This document shows positions 1-35,710 of a stretch of 64,000 nt of DNA, in pieces. The DNA lies in the IMG/VR virus record IMGVR_UViG_3300012232_000010, positions 33,723-97,722 of that record. One strand, written 5' to 3'. The DNA is from a virus (lineage: Duplodnaviria > Caudoviricetes). The notes beneath the pieces are model-generated. The model saw only the letters and a program-made list of their open reading frames with translations, did no database searches and was not told the origin of the DNA. Position numbers and translations under genes: made by a program. The stretch's first letter is position 1; every line of letters starts with the position of its first letter.

Positions 1-1312
1 GACCAGAACTACAACCAGCTACTATACTAGTTGTTCCTGTTGGTGGACAAGTTAGTATGAAACAGTTTCTTATGCCATACTCTAAAATCTTTTTTCTCAA
101 ACCCGGAGTTAGACACTTTTTACAAAATCCACTTTCTATAAATTTGTTTCTATCTAAAAGTGGAAACTGACCTTTTTCCACAGCAAGAAATATGCTTGCT
201 TCGTAAGCCTTTTTCTTGATGAAACTCATTATGGAGTCTGTAACTTCCAAAGCCTTATCGGAAGAATACTTGACACCCATCCTTAGAAGGGTATCGTGTA
301 ACCCCATAACACCGAGACCTATTCTTCTTTCCTTTTGGGAAAAATCTTTTATGATAGGCAACGGGAAATCGTTTTTATCTAGAACATTGTCTAAAAATCT
401 GACACCCAACCTAATCGTATCGTCCAAAGATGACCAGTCTATTTCCCCATCTTTGTCTACGTGAGAAGATAAAACTATGTTTCCCAAGCAACAAATCGAG
501 TATGGCGCTAAAAACTGTTCTCCGCACGGATTGGTAGAAGTGAACTGTCTGCAATAATACAGGTTATTATATTCTTCTGCATTTCCTATATTCAGGAAAC
601 CGGGATCACCAGTTATCAAAGAGTTCTCTACGGCCTTATCGTACAGCCACTTGGCTTTAATAGTCTTTACCGTCTTACCTTGCCACTTCAACTCTATATC
701 TTCATCTTTCTTAAGAAGATCGAAGAAAGTGTTATCAACCAATATACTTATATTCGCGTTGTTAAGTTCTTTTTTATCTAGTTTGACATGCAAAAATTCT
801 TCTATATCAGGATGATTGTAAGATAGGCAGAACATTAAAGCTGATCGCCTACCACCACCCTCTCTTAGTTCGTTACAAACACCATTCACTATTTTCATAA
901 GGGACACAGCACCAGTTGCGACTCCACCAGTACCCTTTATTTCTGCCCCTCTTGGACGAATATTATCAAACGATATTCCTATTCCACCACCCAGACCACT
1001 TATGATCGTAACATCACTAAGTAGCTGACCCCAACCTTCTCTGGAATCTTCCGAAGGAATAACAAAACAATTCAACATAGCAGACTTCTTACGTCCAGCA
1101 CCACGCCAAATTCTTCCACCGGGACTAAATCTATTAGTGTTTAGAATATCGAAAAATCTATCCGCGAAATGTTTGATTTTATCACCATCTTCAGCGCTTG
1201 CTATAAAGTTAGCAACTCTTTGGCAAGCATCTTGAAATTCTTCACTTTCATGAATGGCGTATCTATCTTTAAATATTTGTAGAGAAAAACCTTCTGGACT
1301 ATATGGATTCAT
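1..1312 (-). CDS. nrdJ: Class II (B12-dependent) ribonucleotide reductase, N-terminal part; runs off the left edge
   Basis: Not in ORF track. Hand translation from ATG at 1312 (TAATG overlap with upstream stop): MNPYSPEGFSLQIFKDRY...FSPGGRIW...LNCFV...GGGIG...TNPCGEQ...RRIGLGVMG...PPTGTTS, the canonical RNR motifs. Class II is inferred; no NrdB is seen in the window. Confidence 0.85.
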   Translation of the reverse strand, partial: MNPYSPEGFSLQIFKDRYAIHESEEFQDACQRVANFIASAEDGDKIKHFADRFFDILNTNRFSPGGRIWRGAGRKKSAMLNCFVIPSEDSREGWGQLLSDVTIISGLGGGIGISFDNIRPRGAEIKGTGGVATGAVSLMKIVNGVCNELREGGGRRSALMFCLSYNHPDIEEFLHVKLDKKELNNANISILVDNTFFDLLKKDEDIELKWQGKTVKTIKAKWLYDKAVENSLITGDPGFLNIGNAEEYNNLYYCRQFTSTNPCGEQFLAPYSICCLGNIVLSSHVDKDGEIDWSSLDDTIRLGVRFLDNVLDKNDFPLPIIKDFSQKERRIGLGVMGLHDTLLRMGVKYSSDKALEVTDSIMSFIKKKAYEASIFLAVEKGQFPLLDRNKFIESGFCKKCLTPGLRKKILEYGIRNCFILTCPPTGTTSIVAGCSSG

Positions 1313-1824
1313 TAACTTTTTCCTATGAAATCTTGTATTGAAGCAGATTCTTGCATTAAAAGAATTTTATTTTCAGGAGACCATCTTACCACTTCTATAA
1401 AATGATTTTCTAGCATATCGCGAACAACTTGTGGTAATGAGTCTACTTTAGAATCGGCATACAAGCCGACCTTAGATGTTGTCACTGGACCATACACAAC
1501 TTTAGTTATGCCTTTTTGAATAATATGCGCCCAACAATGAATACATGGTGGACCAGTTATATACGCTGTCGCACCTTCTAGGCTTGAAGAACAATTTAGA
1601 ATCGCGTTTTCCTCTGAATGTAAAATGGGAGGGTATTTCTCTGGACGTTCTTTTGGCATTTTTGATTCGTCAACTTTTCTCGGATATCCGTTGTACCCTA
1701 ATCCCACTATCTGATTATTTTTATTTACTAGGACACATCCGCATTTAGTGCTTTCATCAGGGCTGCGTTTTGACGCCCAAAAAGCCATGACCATAAAGTA
1801 GTCGTCCCAATTGATTCGTTCCAT
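1312..1824 (-). CDS. dCMP deaminase
   Basis: WDDYFM..A..ASKRSPD, GYNG, HSEENAI and PCIHC zinc motifs. Confidence 0.92.
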   Translation of the reverse strand: MERINWDDYFMVMAFWASKRSPDESTKCGCVLVNKNNQIVGLGYNGYPRKVDESKMPKERPEKYPPILHSEENAILNCSSSLEGATAYITGPPCIHCWAHIIQKGITKVVYGPVTTSKVGLYADSKVDSLPQVVRDMLENHFIEVVRWSPENKILLMQESASIQDFIGKS

Positions 1825-1836
1825 ACCTATTATATC

Positions 1837-2619
1837 CTAAATTCCATTTTTTGTTAGAAAATCTCTAATGGATTTTACCGAAGTAGAAGTTACCAAAAAA
1901 CTAAATGCGTAACGATTGTCTTCGGTTTTTCCTATACCCGTCAATACACCGATCAGATAATAGTCTTCGCCAACTTTCGTATACAATCCTCCACCACTAG
2001 AACCAAATGCTGCATTTCCAGATGAAATAATTTGTCCAGTATCATCTTCAATATCAGATATATTCCCCATTGTCATTACAGGATTTTGTCTTAACGGACA
2101 AGCAGACATGTAAACATCAACAAGATTATTCAAACTACCAAATATATTATCATCGGCTATTTTTGCTATATTGCACAAATCTTCATCTAATTCAAAAGAT
2201 ATAATCCCGGCATCAATACCATCGGATTCTATCTCGTCTTCAAATTTTGCGATTACTTTTCTGTCAACTTTGCCGTTAAAAGTATATAATGTGACTTCGA
2301 ACTTTCCTTCAATAACAATATCTCTATTAGCCCCTGTGATAAAATCTTTTGGGCGATATTTTTGAACAATATTTCTATCATCAGTTATATGCTTAACAGT
2401 CAAGATATAGTATTTGCATTTACCATTATCACATTTCTTATCTATTATTGTGCCAGACCCAAACGTTGGTTCTGGTGATTTTATCATTACTGTTGGCCAT
2501 ATAAGTTGCTCTCTTTTAATCTGAATTGGGTCTGCTTGCTTAGTCTCACTTTTTGTAAGATTAATCCCTATAAAAGCTGTCAATAGAGATATCAAGCAAA
2601 ATAGTTTTATATTGCTCAT
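1837..2619 (-). CDS. Secreted trypsin-like serine protease
   Basis: Signal peptide; GSGTII, ILTVKH (His), DAGII (Asp), GSSGGG (Ser). Confidence 0.8.
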   Translation of the reverse strand: MSNIKLFCLISLLTAFIGINLTKSETKQADPIQIKREQLIWPTVMIKSPEPTFGSGTIIDKKCDNGKCKYYILTVKHITDDRNIVQKYRPKDFITGANRDIVIEGKFEVTLYTFNGKVDRKVIAKFEDEIESDGIDAGIISFELDEDLCNIAKIADDNIFGSLNNLVDVYMSACPLRQNPVMTMGNISDIEDDTGQIISSGNAAFGSSGGGLYTKVGEDYYLIGVLTGIGKTEDNRYAFSFLVTSTSVKSIRDFLTKNGI

Positions 2620-2638
2620 ACTTTACTACTTTCTAAAA

Positions 2639-3082
2639 TTACTTGTCAATCTTTTCGTTCACGGCCTCTATCGCACCGTTTAGTGCTAGTACGGCAAGCT
2701 TGTTTCCCACATTCGTAGAATCCTCTGTTTCTATATATTTATTTACAAAGTTCAGTAGAGCAACAGCAAACATCTGGATTTGTGGATCGTTCAAATTATC
2801 AATCAATTCTTGTGCTTGTGTCAAGGTGTATTCTGCGGGATTTTGGCACAAGTCTTTACAATTACCCAAAAATACTACTATATTCTTGTATTGATCTTGA
2901 GTGAGTTCTGAATCCTTGAGCATCATTCTTGTAACTTGCTTTACAGTTTGTTGTATTTGTTCTGGATGATGTTCTACAATATTAGTTACTACAGCTTCTC
3001 CAATCTTTTTCTTAACCGAAGCACACCCAAAAGAAGTTAGGCAAAGTGACAGGACCATAAACATAAAAATAAAATTTTTCAT
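2639..3082 (-). CDS. Putative lipoprotein
   Basis: MK + hydrophobic stretch + lipobox-like SFGC. Confidence 0.55.
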   Translation of the reverse strand: MKNFIFMFMVLSLCLTSFGCASVKKKIGEAVVTNIVEHHPEQIQQTVKQVTRMMLKDSELTQDQYKNIVVFLGNCKDLCQNPAEYTLTQAQELIDNLNDPQIQMFAVALLNFVNKYIETEDSTNVGNKLAVLALNGAIEAVNEKIDK

Positions 3083-3145
3083 ACTATTTCTCCAAAAGTT
3101 TAAGAAAATCTGTGGATTTGAGCCAATCTCTTTTCCGTTTCTTTT

Positions 3146-3634
3146 CTAAGAAGCATAAGTTTCTCTTATCTTTTTAATTGCTTTGTTCTTACTTGTGAAT
3201 ACACAGTTGCTAGATATGTCTAACTTTTCAGATATTTCTCTAAGAGTATTGTTTTCTAAGTAATACATGACTAGTATATTTCTTTCTCTATCCGTCAGTT
3301 TTTCTAGCATTTCCGCAATGAATATACTGTCGTCTTGCGAGCCATCCTTAGCGATTGAAGAAACGGTATTATCATATATGTTTTTACACAAATTCTTCTC
3401 TCGTCTTATGTATTTCAAGATATTTCCGTGGACTGTTCTGTATAAATAATTATTGAAAGACCCCAATTGATTATTATAATAAATCATAGCATAAAGTAGC
3501 TTAACTTTGGCTATAGCCATGAGTTCATCAGGGTTTTTATACTTGAAACCAGCCACTATCTGGAATAAAAGCTTTACTTTACTTTTATAGTAATAGTTGT
3601 AGTAAGAACTAGTTATTCTTCTTCGTAATCTCAA
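3146..3634 (-). CDS. Sigma-70/ECF-like RNA polymerase sigma factor
   Basis: Region 2-like GSFNNYLYRTV; region 4 LTDRERNILVMYY...TLREISEKLDIS...KAIKKIR. Confidence 0.75.
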   Translation of the reverse strand: MRLRRRITSSYYNYYYKSKVKLLFQIVAGFKYKNPDELMAIAKVKLLYAMIYYNNQLGSFNNYLYRTVHGNILKYIRREKNLCKNIYDNTVSSIAKDGSQDDSIFIAEMLEKLTDRERNILVMYYLENNTLREISEKLDISSNCVFTSKNKAIKKIRETYAS

Positions 3635-32204: not shown

Positions 32205-32864
32205 TCATATAGCCCTCATTTCATTAGAGAGAAGATTGATTTCAATTTCCTTATCTAATGCGCATCCTCTTAGCCACTTAACAAACTGTGCGACCCTAAG
32301 ATTAGCCGAGACTTTGGCGCTATAAATGGTCATGGGAGTCGTACACCCAACATTAAAAGCTTCTTCATCGGTATACAAACTCGCCTCATAATGAGCATAA
32401 CTTTCATCGTCATGCACAACGAAAATTCTTGCATACTCAGCCGCAGTGCGACTATCTATAAACAAATCTCTTGCCGAAGCTGTGGATTCAAAGATTTGCT
32501 TTCTAGCTTCCATAGAGTCTACACAACTGAAAACCACTCCGTCATTAAAAGTCATTGGATTGAATTTATTTTTGATAACCTTGACTTCTATACCGGGATT
32601 AATCATTTTGATTACTTGGGCAACGGCATCTACCTTAAATTCCCCAATTTGACTTTCGAAAAAGCCTTGTGTGGCCAAATTAGGCACTTCGACCTTATCA
32701 TAATCAATAAGATCAAGTCTAGGAACACCAATTTCTGCCAACGTAAGAGCCACTTGCCTACCGCCAGCCCCAACACCGACAACCGTACACTTGGTATTCT
32801 TCAGCTTCTCTTCCGGAACTAATGTTCTCTGTCTAGCCGATCTGTCCGCCAATGATTGACTCAT
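32205..32864 (-). CDS. E1-like ThiF/MoeB adenylyltransferase
   Basis: RQ; VVGVGAGG; DYDKVEVPNLATQ; K; CVDSMEAR; DSR; candidate catalytic Cys in GCT. Confidence 0.92.
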   Translation of the reverse strand: MSQSLADRSARQRTLVPEEKLKNTKCTVVGVGAGGRQVALTLAEIGVPRLDLIDYDKVEVPNLATQGFFESQIGEFKVDAVAQVIKMINPGIEVKVIKNKFNPMTFNDGVVFSCVDSMEARKQIFESTASARDLFIDSRTAAEYARIFVVHDDESYAHYEASLYTDEEAFNVGCTTPMTIYSAKVSANLRVAQFVKWLRGCALDKEIEINLLSNEMRAI

Positions 32865-33735
32865 ATTGACCCTCCATATCTCTAAATGCCTCTTTCCATT
32901 CTTCCTCTTCGGAATGCTCTATGAAATTTTCTATAAGGGCTTCCCATTCTAATTTAGGATTTCTAATCCTGCGTCCATCCGGAGCGTAAAATCTTTCCAA
33001 TTCTTTATCATATTTGTAATAATCCTTTTCTTCTTCTACGTAGAAGAGAATACAATCACCTTCTTCGAAGATGAATGGATTTTCATCCTTTTCTTCCTCT
33101 TCAAGATTGGGAATTGTACTTGTTGTATCTCTATGGAAATATTGCTTGTTGTTTCTTAGGAATTCTGTGATAGATTCTTTTTCTCCCTTATAGAACTTAA
33201 CATCCTCTTTCGTGACTTTATCCTCATATTCCTTTTTCCATTCTGCTTGATTGCTAGCATCAAATGGATGAGAATAATCCACTTCAGACTTTATCTCACA
33301 ATCTATTCCGGGAGCAACATTGAATCTCATTCTTGTGTAATCCTTACCCTCATTAGCAAGGATATAGAAGATAGCACAATCTGGCAAAGAGAAATTAGTG
33401 TCGAAATTATCTTCGTCAGCGCCGCTTGGATTTGGACAATTGCCCGGATGTGTATGAATCCAAATTCGCTGACATTGCCAAGGGGCAATCCCCTTATCAA
33501 GCATGTCTTCTACGAATTTAATAGAATCCTCTTCATCCAAGTCAACTGACACAGAAGTGCATTTTTGCTTTACAAGACAGAAATCAGTTACTAGCATAGG
33601 GTCTTCTGTTCCAGAAATCCCATATCCGCCAATCTCTGTATCTCCCGCATCACGCATAAACATAATTTTAGCAAATGCATATGGGGTAAATTTTAAGATA
33701 CCACTAGGATTTTTCTTTGGTTCTAGAAATTCCAT
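32833..33735 (-). CDS. JAB/MPN+ metalloprotease (Ubl-processing/deconjugase) with acidic tail
   Basis: TEIGGYG (Glu) and WIHTHPGNCPNPSGAD = HxH-x7-S-x2-D JAMM motif. Confidence 0.88.
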   Translation of the reverse strand: MEFLEPKKNPSGILKFTPYAFAKIMFMRDAGDTEIGGYGISGTEDPMLVTDFCLVKQKCTSVSVDLDEEDSIKFVEDMLDKGIAPWQCQRIWIHTHPGNCPNPSGADEDNFDTNFSLPDCAIFYILANEGKDYTRMRFNVAPGIDCEIKSEVDYSHPFDASNQAEWKKEYEDKVTKEDVKFYKGEKESITEFLRNNKQYFHRDTTSTIPNLEEEEKDENPFIFEEGDCILFYVEEEKDYYKYDKELERFYAPDGRRIRNPKLEWEALIENFIEHSEEEEWKEAFRDMEGQYESIIGGQIG

Positions 33736-33744
33736 ACTTTCTCC

Positions 33745-34926
33745 TTAAGAAGTTGTTCTTGGACGCCGTGTTCGCCTAACGGGAGTTACTGGTTCTTCTT
33801 CCTTTTCCTCTTCTTTTTCGCAACACCACTTTTCATCATCGTGACATTTCGTACAAATTGTTGATCCACATTGTTTACAAGATTGTTCACAAGATTCGCA
33901 CAAACCTGACTCACATCCATTACATGTGCTTTCATGTTTTTTACAAATATGATCCCCGCATGAATCACAAGATTTACTACATTCTTCACATATGGTTTCG
34001 TCGCACACTTGACAAGTAGTAGCGCAATCTTCGCATAATGTTGTATCGCATCTTTGACAATACGAACTGTTTTCTGAACAACGATTACAAGAATGTGTTT
34101 CACATGCACCACAACTTATTGTCATATGTTCTGAACAGACAGAACAACCACAAGAGTCGCAACAAGAGGCACAATCATCACAAACACTTCTATCACATAT
34201 TTCGCAACAGCACCCACATTCTTCTGGGTCGTAACTACAATCGCATCTTTGGCATCTTACGCCTTCCCACTCATCTAAAGAATGGTATGGCGAATCCCTA
34301 TTATAGTTACTTAGAATATTGATTGCGAGATTGAACACATCCTCTATTCTTCCCTGTTGGGCCGCATCACAAATCAGACTATATCCTTCACCCATACACA
34401 AGGAATCACCATCTACGTGTGGATGCGGATAATTTTCTCCACCACCAGCATAGTTCGGCTCTAGTGCATTTATTGTTAGGAACGAATTAGGGGATGAGTC
34501 TATCAAATTTACAGCCACTCGGACTTCAAATCTTCCTAATCCAATATTTTCAAGAGTTATGGGGCTTGTTGTAACTATCAAATATCCGTCTTCATAAACC
34601 AGAGATTTGAAAGTATTGTTACAAGCTGTCAATTCGGCTAGATAATACTTCGAATCAAAAGATTCTTTCTCGAATTCTAGTCGTTTCTTGTAATCGCTTA
34701 CAATATCTAAAATTCTTGTTATTGCGGTATTAATCTTTTCTTCTATTTTAGAAGAAGCTAGACCAAGGTTGTTACTCATGGCCTTATTTCTTAGAACGTT
34801 ATTTTGGTGTATGGTTAGACTTGCATCTCGGACTTTATTGTGGTTGTATACCACATCTAGTTGTTTCTTTTTAGAAAGTTTGCTATGGAATATGTCTGCT
34901 ACTTCTTTTAGTTGTTCTTTTTTCAT
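33745..34926 (-). CDS. E2-like (UBC-fold) protein with N-terminal helical region and C-terminal Cys-rich repeats
   Basis: YPHPHVDGDSLCMGEG matches the E2 HPH/N...C signature; YN.DSPY; C-terminal CxxC-x4-CxxC repeats; start at ATG 34926 after GAGG. Confidence 0.75.
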   Translation of the reverse strand: MKKEQLKEVADIFHSKLSKKKQLDVVYNHNKVRDASLTIHQNNVLRNKAMSNNLGLASSKIEEKINTAITRILDIVSDYKKRLEFEKESFDSKYYLAELTACNNTFKSLVYEDGYLIVTTSPITLENIGLGRFEVRVAVNLIDSSPNSFLTINALEPNYAGGGENYPHPHVDGDSLCMGEGYSLICDAAQQGRIEDVFNLAINILSNYNRDSPYHSLDEWEGVRCQRCDCSYDPEECGCCCEICDRSVCDDCASCCDSCGCSVCSEHMTISCGACETHSCNRCSENSSYCQRCDTTLCEDCATTCQVCDETICEECSKSCDSCGDHICKKHESTCNGCESGLCESCEQSCKQCGSTICTKCHDDEKWCCEKEEEKEEEPVTPVRRTRRPRTTS

Positions 34927-34945
34927 AAATCCTCTTGCCTCAATA

Positions 34946-34971
34946 GGGGCAGCCCCTTTCGGAGCCGCCCC
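34946..34971 (-). promoter_or_regulatory. GC-rich 11-bp hairpin with GAAA tetraloop between the Ubl and E2 genes
   Basis: Minus strand GGGGCGGCTCC-GAAA-GGGGCTGCCCC (two G-U pairs). Confidence 0.7.
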
Positions 34972-34990
34972 ATTTTCCAATTAGACAGAT

Positions 34991-35221
34991 TTATTCACCC
35001 TTGACCTTGGCTGGTGCGGCGGTAACACGATCCCCATTGAGCAGAACATCATCCATGTCCGCTCTTTCCGAGAAACCGTTGCGACGAATACTGAAGATGT
35101 AATCGTCAAGGTCGCCCTCAAAGTGAACATCAAGGAATTCCCGAACGGTCACACCATCACGAACGTCGTGAGTCTGGGGGAGACCATTTCCCATGTTGGT
35201 AACAAAAGATACTGTGTTCAT
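34991..35221 (-). CDS. Ubiquitin-like (beta-grasp, ThiS/MoaD-like) protein
   Basis: 76 aa; V.DG.TV.EFL, I..NG, D.VL.NGDRV; C-terminus KVKGE; first gene of the E2-JAB-E1 run. Confidence 0.8.
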   Translation of the reverse strand: MNTVSFVTNMGNGLPQTHDVRDGVTVREFLDVHFEGDLDDYIFSIRRNGFSERADMDDVLLNGDRVTAAPAKVKGE

Positions 35222-35242: not shown

Positions 35243-35710
35243 CTACACCAAAACACTCTCCGAACACCGGAGAGCGCCAAGACACATCGTATTAAAATCA
35301 TAAGAGGGGCTAAATGGAGAAACGCAATTTTCATAATACTCTATGTTGGCGATTCCCTTTTCAACTAGCCCCCTCATGGTTGCTTTAACACATTGATCGC
35401 TATAAACACCACAAACATTTAGAGATTGTGGAAGATTGAATTTTTCAATAATATCAAGAACCTGTTTGCTCCCATCCAGATTATCTTTTTCCACAAAGAA
35501 AACGTTGGAATAATCTTTTAGGCACGACATAACAGGAGCTACTGTTTTACCAGCTTGTTCGTACTCGACTATTATAATTGGCCAACAATTTCCGATAAAT
35601 TCTTTTAGAAGAGTTTTTACATTCTCAACAAGAATCTTATCGTTGAAGCCTTCTTCATAGACATACGCCGGTTGCATATCTACAACTATAAGAGTTTTCA
35701 TAATCAACAA
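35243..35710 (-). CDS. Isochorismatase/cysteine hydrolase family
   Basis: LIVVDMQ, K, VCGVYSDQCV. Confidence 0.8.
   Translation of the reverse strand: MLIMKTLIVVDMQPAYVYEEGFNDKILVENVKTLLKEFIGNCWPIIIVEYEQAGKTVAPVMSCLKDYSNVFFVEKDNLDGSKQVLDIIEKFNLPQSLNVCGVYSDQCVKATMRGLVEKGIANIEYYENCVSPFSPSYDFNTMCLGALRCSESVLV

Follow-up and report, generated by a model that had tools for sequence, protein, structure and literature searches.

A putative ubiquitin-like protein conjugation cassette carried by large phages

Conjugation of ubiquitin-like proteins (Ubls) in bacteria has been characterised only as anti-phage immunity of the host, in the Bil system, in Cap2/Cap3 of the anti-phage signalling system that is based on cyclic oligonucleotides (CBASS) and probably in Bub. 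Here we describe a four-gene cassette in a virus of the Caudoviricetes that encodes a Ubl, an E2-like (conjugating) protein, a JAB metalloprotease and an E1 (activating) enzyme. The cassette lies on a stretch of 64,000 nucleotides, called the window below, that spans bases 33723-97722 of the 97.7-kb IMG/VR virus record IMGVR_UViG_3300012232_000010. The set probably constitutes a thioester-type Ubl conjugation cascade that is owned by the phage itself.

Among the described systems, BilABCD (types I and II) shares with the cassette the gene order Ubl, E2, JAB-type deubiquitinase (DUB) and E1 (PMC10557695; Hör et al., 10.1101/2023.09.04.556158) and the precursor form of the tag. In type II BilA a conserved Gly is followed by a few non-conserved residues, and BilC cleaves after this Gly (Chambers et al., PMC10557695). 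The cassette Ubl likewise has an invariant Gly with a non-conserved tail in 22 of 22 homologues; in Bil the tail is removed by the DUB. As in Bil, both E1 and E2 contain a conserved Cys, and thioester-type chemistry is predicted. The single-domain E1, the position of the His-Pro-His motif, the fused Cys array and the ThiS-like tag do not match BilABCD. BilD is a multidomain protein with an inactive and an active adenylation domain, a CYS domain and a zinc site, whereas the E1 described here is a single ThiF domain of 219 amino acids. BilB (CEHH) has a conserved His after its Cys, while in the cassette E2 the HPH precedes the Cys, and unlike BilB the protein carries a helical N-terminal domain and a long CxxC array. 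BilA resembles ubiquitin and ISG15, but the cassette Ubl is ThiS/SAMP-like. Finally, Bil is found in bacterial defence islands, whereas the carrier here is a phage.

Other systems show partial likeness. The Caldiarchaeum ubiquitin operon also holds a complete set of Ub, E1, E2, E3 and JAMM-type genes (PMC3082918, PMC5654768), with an HPx motif before the E2 Cys, a zinc-finger element accompanying the E2, and the Rpn11-like enzyme that is the best solved relative found with the JAB family profile. It differs in having a small separate RING protein and a Ub and E1 that are near to the eukaryotic ones, in place of a fused zinc array, a ThiS-like tag and a minimal E1. Bub (formerly 6E; PMC11601596) has a homodimer-type single-domain E1 core, and the profile of the cassette E1 matches BubCD at 9.4e-11; one chain of the BubCD-BubB-BubA complex is matched by the E2 core at Z 5.4. 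Bub uses oxyester intermediates without a catalytic Cys, a peptidase-E1 fusion and the serine protease BubE (PMC11601596), whereas in the cassette Cys174 of E1 and Cys177 of E2 are invariant and the JAMM protease is a separate gene. The PRTRC and other cassettes of plasmids and integrative and conjugative elements (ICEs) combine a ThiF-type E1, JAB, an E2-like protein and a Ubl (Iyer et al. 2006, class 6b; TIGR03736). They share carriage by mobile elements and an unassigned function, the cellular copies of our cassette being found in integrative elements. The cassette E1 scores below the PRTRC_ThiF cut-off (37.4 bits; cut-off 144.75), no ParB partner was seen, and the E2 belongs to another family. 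In phage lambda a beta-grasp domain is processed by a phage JAB (gpI/gpK; Iyer et al. 2006, class 5; PMC12908700), but lambda has no E1 or E2 and its Ubl is cleaved off a structural protein in tail assembly. In type II CBASS, Cap2 is an E2-E1 fusion, whereas E2 and E1 are separate here, and the E1-E2 models of PADLOC match the E1 part only. In the literature covered we found no phage-borne member of this cassette family described; the combination of E2 and zinc array could be mentioned by Burroughs et al. (2009, 2011), which lie beyond that coverage.

Components of the cassette

The original prediction described four adjacent, co-oriented genes with characteristic motifs, and all of these are present in the translations of four consecutive minus-strand open reading frames (ORFs). 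The first encodes a 76-residue protein that had been described as a beta-grasp Ubl. The window protein by itself matched no Pfam or PHROG family, and the assignment comes from its relatives. A profile of the Ubl family matched the solved structures of SAMP2 (5lda_B, E=0.0035), the SAMP-like protein PF1061 and MoaD; Pfam ThiS was matched by 12 of the 22 homologues (best 3.5e-6), and among the Ubl's neighbours in the ESM Atlas is a cluster from Planctomycetota that is annotated in part as ThiS. By these comparisons the Ubl is probably a ThiS/MoaD/SAMP-type beta-grasp protein made as a precursor. Its homologues precede the E2 gene in almost every cassette. The alignment of the 22 sequences contains a single invariant Gly, Gly75 in the window, which is followed in every case by 1-14 variable residues. 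Examples of these tails are E, ELN, ARLVLI and AIGSEGAEIRLAA, and in the window the tail is Glu76. The invariant Gly with its variable tails implies trimming by JAB, in keeping with the predicted removal of the terminal Glu.

The JAB protein of the window contains the JAMM motif HTHPGNCPNPSGAD (HxH-x7-S-x2-D) with an upstream Glu in the sequence TEIGG. All site residues (Glu34, His94, His96, Ser104 and Asp107) are invariant in 20 homologues. As a single sequence the protein matched Prok-JAB with 17.6 bits (E 0.0036; cut-off 25 bits) and the PADLOC JAB model at 1.7e-4. With the family profile the best solved relative was the Rpn11-like protein of Caldiarchaeum (6fjv, E=4.5e-5), which we take to be the enzyme that processes pro-ubiquitin in the archaeal ubiquitin operon. 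The identification as a JAMM protease is thus borne out at the level of motif and profile. A C-terminal extension of about 130 residues is typical of the phage copies.

The E1 matched Pfam ThiF at 2e-28 over residues 19-204 (99.6 bits; cut-off 28.1), in agreement with the predicted ThiF-type enzyme, and its translation contains GVGAGG (GxGxxG) and VGCTT. In 36 non-redundant cassette E1s the residues G30/G32/G35, Asp54, Asn62, Gln66, Lys77, Asp116, Arg139, Cys114 and Cys174 are invariant. The protein is a single adenylation domain without zinc CxxC pairs, a second inactive adenylation domain, a UFD or a rhodanese domain. Its nearest solved relatives are UBA5, ThiF, MoeB, MccB, UBA7 and BubCD, and none of the NCBIfam equivalogs attained its cut-off with this sequence. 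Judged from the ends of the alignment (query 17-179 against chain 22-189), Cys174 corresponds to ThiF residue 184, presumably the crossover-loop Cys of ThiF and MoeB.

These relationships raise the question whether proteins are conjugated at all. The tag could instead carry sulfur or donate an activated acyl group, like ThiS, MoaD or TtuB, being adenylated by E1 for thiolation or for modification of a small molecule or nucleic acid, and the Cys-rich protein a redox or metal partner. The nearest families of the tag are ThiS, MoaD and SAMP2, the nearest named families of the E1 are ThiF and MoeB, and the tag ends in a single C-terminal Gly. The SAMP, TtuB and Urm1 systems, moreover, have dual functions. 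Against this explanation stand the lack of a rhodanese domain on the E1, the constant presence of a JAMM protease together with removable tails on the tag, and a predicted UBC-fold domain with an invariant HPH-x6-Cys motif. The absence of sulfur-transfer partners, which had been noticed for the window, held more widely: no ThiG above cut-off, no MoaE and no rhodanese were found in the window's record or in four complete relatives by searches that matched 11-14 of 14 control genomes. We therefore regard the sulfur-carrier explanation as improbable and protein conjugation as the better description of the cassette.

The least familiar component is the E2-like protein. When 1.84 billion cluster representatives were scanned with HMMER, 1,488 relatives passed E≤0.001 and 977 passed E≤1e-10. 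Those with a name are all 'hypothetical protein, Planctomycetota', and a word-index search with the E2 returned two proteins only. In 147 aligned family members His168-Pro169-His170, Cys177 and Gly179 are invariant (HPH-x6-Cys); there is no invariant His downstream of Cys177, and the Gly is two residues after the Cys. Almost all aligned members carry the C-terminal CxxC array. Known E2 families were not recognised at the sequence level. Neither UQ_con nor Prok-E2_A to Prok-E2_E of Pfam matched the window E2 at E≤0.1 or 22 family members at E≤0.01. The profile of the family retrieved zinc fingers and coiled coils from the PDB and no E2, and for the E2 core the ESM Atlas returned only unnamed clusters.

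An AlphaFold2 model of a 252-residue construct (predicted local distance difference test, pLDDT, 92.5) shows three long N-terminal helices followed by a further helix, a meander of four strands, a loop and two more helices. Fold searches with this model were dominated by coiled-coil matches to the N-terminal helices, although the UEV domain of TSG101 was matched with Z 6.7 over 121 residues. A model of the core alone (window 34231-34671) had a pLDDT of 94.4 and was compared to all 48,161 PDB representatives, without a Foldseek pre-filter. No more than 42 chains scored Z≥5, and nearly all of the 50 chains listed were UBC, UEV or RWD domains. The top matches were E2S (Z 7.2, root-mean-square deviation 4.0, 121 residues aligned), UBE2E1, UbcH10, UBE2F, Ubc13 and UbcH5; others were VPS37A (Z 7.0), an RWD domain (Z 6.2) and a chain of the Citrobacter Bub complex (Z 5.4). 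The first rows of a Foldseek search with the core were also E2 enzymes (1yf9 at E 0.077, UBE2H, UBE2W). In the core model HPH-x6-Cys lies between strand 4 and helix 2, the spot where, we assume, canonical E2s carry HPN-x7-Cys. The UBC fold that had been proposed for this protein is thus recovered in the predicted model. The core fold is UBC-like and the domain probably catalytic, while it lies outside every curated E2 sequence family.

A non-catalytic role is very improbable, but some results point that way. The domain could be a UEV/RWD-type adaptor, with E1 alone conjugating the tag as in the E2-less SAMP/UbaA systems of archaea and the 393-residue protein serving only to bind nucleic acid or as a scaffold with zinc fingers. 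It is matched by no E2 sequence model, and VPS37A, RWD and, with the longer model, TSG101 score near to the true E2s. Without catalysis, however, it would be hard to explain why a His-Pro-His and a Cys seven residues later are invariant in 147 members, and we prefer a catalytic E2.

C-terminal to the core is a Cys-rich array of eight regular units of about 15 residues, which is followed by an acidic/basic tail. The copies of large phages (the window, L002, L012 and L014-L023; L numbers denote loci) have 16-21 CxxC motifs per E2 and the cellular copies about 10. The profile of the E2 family matched the B-box of MID1 (2ffw, E=0.0034) and the zinc finger of TFIIH p44 (E=0.011), and an ANCHR-like B-box matched the E2-like protein at E=0.037, below the cut-off; these matches are weak though consistent. 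We infer a putative zinc-binding module of B-box/RING-like type which might select substrates or act like an E3.

Viral ownership and distribution

The remainder of the record encodes a phage-type replication set consisting of a split DNA polymerase, primase, DnaB-like helicase, UvsX-like recombinase and exonuclease. Glycosyltransferases are also encoded on the record, and the window contains genes for a DNA ligase, an RNA ligase and NAMPT. The completeness of the record was estimated at 58% by CheckV. To survey related loci, IMG/VR was scanned with an E1 alignment and cassette genes were called with custom hidden Markov models. This yielded 63 loci, of which about 30 have the full order Ubl-E2-JAB-E1. 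Four relatives that carry the cassette are 97-100% complete and 160-180 kb long and encode terminase-like ORFs; one of them has direct terminal repeats. A scan of IMG/VR with the single E2 sequence gave no match. The GenBank phage collection likewise yielded nothing when it was searched at DNA and protein level for the operon and the E2, and the E1 recovered from it only ThiF genes that are distant (about 30% identity) and belong to Flavobacterium and crAss-like phages.

In a midpoint-rooted maximum-likelihood tree of the E1s, the window falls into a cluster of 15 rows, 10 of which come from viral contigs of 119-181 kb. The support of this cluster (80/99) is below the threshold for a starred node and its bootstrap had not settled, whereas a star (99/94) marks the smaller cluster, which unites the window with its five nearest rows. 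The cellular cassette E1s group apart from the window's cluster. From this grouping it would seem that large phages of one group have kept the cassette. The survey for the gene order, which gave about 30 viral contigs and several cellular contigs, also bears on the four-gene arrangement: because the same families occur in the same order in these independent contigs, it is not a matter of chance. Ownership by a phage, as originally proposed, is borne out by the viral record, the replication module, the complete viral relatives and the E1 tree. For the same reasons (viral record, phage replication module, complete viral relatives) we rejected contamination or a cellular origin of the contig.

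The four genes are also present on three long cellular contigs, where in each case (3 of 3 loci) they lie within an integrase-bearing island and come after a gene for a DUF2958 protein, a family that we take to be typical of plasmid and ICE transfer regions. Genes for a SNF2 helicase and an OLD-like ATPase are found in one of the islands and a Bub system in another. The latter island, which is integrase-flanked and belongs to a Planctomycetes metagenome-assembled genome (VRUI01000022.1; L008 5397-13185), has the cassette beside a Bub-type set (Multi_ubiq, DUF6791-ThiF and BubE), with an N6_Mtase-like gene inserted between the Ubl and E2 genes of the cassette. Of 301 Planctomycetota species genomes sampled, 10 contained members of the E2 family (1-6 matches per genome). 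The single-cell genome AM-311-N14 (G006, 3 Mb) has four full-length copies on contigs C1, C5, C7 and C111, and another genome (G231) has up to six matches. Such multiple copies suggest a proliferating mobile element. Since the named E2 homologues are all from Planctomycetota and the family occurs in genomes of this phylum, Planctomycetota is the likely host phylum.

These cellular copies bear on another explanation, according to which the chemistry is the same and the cassette serves mobile elements for defence or exclusion by tagging a structural protein of a competing phage, as Bil does. Superinfection exclusion would be the reason for large phages to keep it, and integrated elements would protect their host with it. 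The characterised bacterial relatives (Bil, CBASS Cap2/Cap3 and Bub) act in anti-phage immunity or are linked to it, cellular copies lie in integrase-bearing islands near a Bub system, a SNF2 helicase and an OLD-like ATPase, and the distribution in Planctomycetota is sparse and multi-copy. On the other side, the clustering of the window E1 with those of large viral contigs, apart from the cellular ones, suggests long retention in apparently lytic phages. In the phage the cassette is surrounded by replication, RNA-repair and NAD-salvage genes and not by a defence island, and in all three cellular loci it follows the DUF2958 gene. The defence models of PADLOC recognised only the generic E1 and JAB parts and matched neither the E2 nor the Ubl. 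We consider a defence function a possible but less likely explanation and favour a conjugation cascade owned by the phage.

Several loci depart from the standard arrangement. Altered architectures were seen in L024/L025 (381-3293), L033/L034 (about 1136-3586) and L036 (2630-3820 and 5902-7251). Among these variants a 245-residue ORF at the position of the Ubl is combined with a 710-residue E2-like ORF; E2-like ORFs of about 770-800 residues occur with no separate Ubl match; and one locus has two E2 paralogues on either side of JAB-E1. In the crAss-like phage cr111_1 (L004, MT774387.1; 2469-5699) a comparable run of genes is found, in which a 426-residue protein is encoded upstream of a JAB-ThiF pair of 415 residues (Prok-JAB matched weakly, 0.0007) and 251 residues (ThiF). 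The 426-residue protein was considered as an E2 relative and rejected, as hhalign found no relation to the E2 family. The BFVD database contains unnamed viral proteins, one of them crAss-like, with a similar predicted core (probability 0.93-1.0), and E2-like proteins may accordingly be commoner in phages than their annotation suggests.

Gene layout, expression signals and neighbouring genes

Nearly all genes of the window are on the minus strand, with 3 tRNA genes interspersed. The features of the cassette and its surroundings are collected in Table 1. Within the cassette, the gap between E2 and JAB is 9 nt, JAB and E1 overlap by 32 nt, and the stop of E1 overlaps the next gene by 4 nt; this close packing suits coupled expression and co-translation. 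The E2 gene exists as the ORF 33745-34980 of the original prediction, but its start had to be corrected. Translation most likely begins at ATG 34926 rather than TTG 34980, because an AGAGGA ribosome-binding site lies five bases upstream of the ATG and the relatives align from that Met, while the frame from the TTG would traverse a strong hairpin.

Table 1. Features of the conjugation cassette and neighbouring genes (window coordinates)
Feature	Position	Strand	Basis or remark
Collagen-repeat protein, 468 aa	36014-37420	-	two genes upstream of cassette
Isochorismatase-family gene	35243-35710	-	directly upstream of Ubl gene; Pfam 2.2e-14
Ubl tag precursor, 76 aa, ends KVKGE	34991..35221	-	ORF list
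Stem-loop, GC-rich, 11-bp stem, GAAA loop	34946..34971	-	Ubl-E2 intergenic space
E2-like protein, 393 aa	33745..34926	-	start at ATG 34926; longer ORF listed to 34980
N-terminal three-helix domain of E2-like protein	about 34672-34926	-	predicted model
UBC-like core of E2-like protein	34231-34671	-	predicted model
E2 active-site stretch HPHVDGDSLC	34396..34425	-	translation; Cys177 is the putative catalytic Cys
Cys-rich array	33811..34254	-	eight CxxC-x4-CxxC/H units and a leading CxxC cluster
JAMM/MPN+ metalloprotease, 300 aa	32833..33735	-	ORF list
Minimal E1, 219 aa	32205..32864	-	ORF list
Coiled-coil protein, 128 aa	31822-32208	-	4-nt overlap with E1
Membrane protein, 99 aa	31520-31819	-	2-nt gap to 128-aa gene
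Ycf46-like AAA+ ATPase, 514 aa	26759-28303	-	phrog_8638 match 1e-115

The hairpin between the Ubl and E2 genes has an energy of -32.3 kcal/mol (z = -4.6) and is not followed by a U-run. Hairpins of other sequences occur at the same position in L002, L018 and L023, with a U-run only after that of L023. From its sequence and position the element is probably a partial terminator or a transcript stabiliser that keeps the tag in excess over the enzymes.

Downstream of E1, the genes for the 128-residue coiled-coil protein and the 99-residue membrane protein are probably co-transcribed with the cassette. They were rejected as fifth and sixth components, being kept only in the closest relative, L002; the membrane protein is also weakly matched in L021. 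The isochorismatase-family gene that precedes the Ubl gene is found close to the cassette in L002, L014, L015, L018 and L019 too. The 468-residue protein encoded further upstream has a signal-peptide-like N-terminus, collagen triple-helix repeats (Pfam 4.6e-14), a surface repeat flanked by collagen sequence and a hydrophobic C-terminal anchor, and is kept in the nearest relative. A Ycf46-like AAA+ ATPase is encoded 3-6 kb downstream of the cassette in at least 8 viral loci (besides the window L002, L012, L013, L014, L018, L023, L027 and L030) and is absent near the cellular copies. Its recurrence may be plain synteny of related phages or may reflect a functional link between tagging and unfolding. 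The DNA polymerase of the phage (phrog_405), encoded outside the window, is divided between two ORFs separated by about 13 kb, at record bases of about 3.5-5.2 kb (L074 3486-5249) and 18.5-20.8 kb (L075 2483-4789); the 768-residue ORF matches the profile's N-terminal part (positions 42-440) and the 587-residue ORF its C-terminal part (positions 623-1063).

Proposed mechanism, role and significance

The chemical steps of the cascade and the selection of its target, as we infer them from these features, would be as follows. The 76-residue tag would be made as a precursor from which the JAMM protease removes the residue or residues after Gly75. The E1, probably a homodimer like ThiF, MoeB and UBA5, would adenylate Gly75, and Cys174 may hold the tag. 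The tag would then be transferred to Cys177 of the UBC-fold E2. The eight-unit CxxC array, the helical N-domain or both would select the target, so that E2 and E3-like functions are combined in one polypeptide. JAB could also reverse the conjugation, and the hairpin after the tag gene would probably keep the tag abundant relative to the enzymes.

Some observations weigh against this scheme. The tag is nearest to sulfur carriers and ends in a single Gly instead of Gly-Gly. The E1 does not have the Arg of the NLxRQ motif, position 65 being T, A, P, S or C in 36 of 36 sequences and Arg in ThiF, and it also does not have the domains that bind E2 in canonical E1s. The E2 has no match among the models of Pfam, PADLOC, PHROG and NCBIfam, the structural scores of its core (Z 7.2; Foldseek E 0.077) are modest and were obtained with a predicted model, and the interpretation of the array as zinc-binding depends on weak profile matches. 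The window's own record, moreover, is only 58% complete and has no structural genes. With these points taken into account we still consider a conjugation cascade probable.

As to its role, modification of host proteins for takeover or counter-defence is the use that we tentatively put first, because the cassette is located among replication and repair genes in lytic-looking phages and beside DUF2958 in the integrated elements. Somewhat less likely is the possibility discussed above, that rival phages or elements are excluded as they are by Bil. Modification of the phage's own proteins seems unlikely, and the same holds for some other function. A more specific proposal, which we offer as a long shot, is that the E2 with its zinc-finger array is an E2-E3 hybrid sufficient in itself, with which a whole lineage of 160-180 kb Planctomycetota phages tags host proteins such as defence factors, possibly for the Ycf46-like AAA+ ATPase. 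If true, the hybrid and the ATPase would form a viral 'ubiquitin plus unfoldase' takeover system in bacteria, and the longer array of the phages (8-10 units, compared to about 5 in cellular copies) would represent target diversification.

The four protein families of the cassette are either absent from Pfam, PHROGs, PADLOC and NCBIfam or fall short of the thresholds there, except that the E1 exceeds the Pfam ThiF cut-off. With about 1,500 representatives of the E2 family at 50% identity, many genomes carry this E2 unannotated. A 219-residue E1 and an E2 fused to a repetitive zinc array could provide a minimal and tractable model of how an E1-E2-E3 cascade is constructed. The complete tagging machinery is virus-owned here, is common to related large phages and is also present on integrated elements of the probable host phylum. 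Such ownership reverses the known direction of the weapon and would parallel the eukaryotic viruses that encode enzymes of the ubiquitin system.

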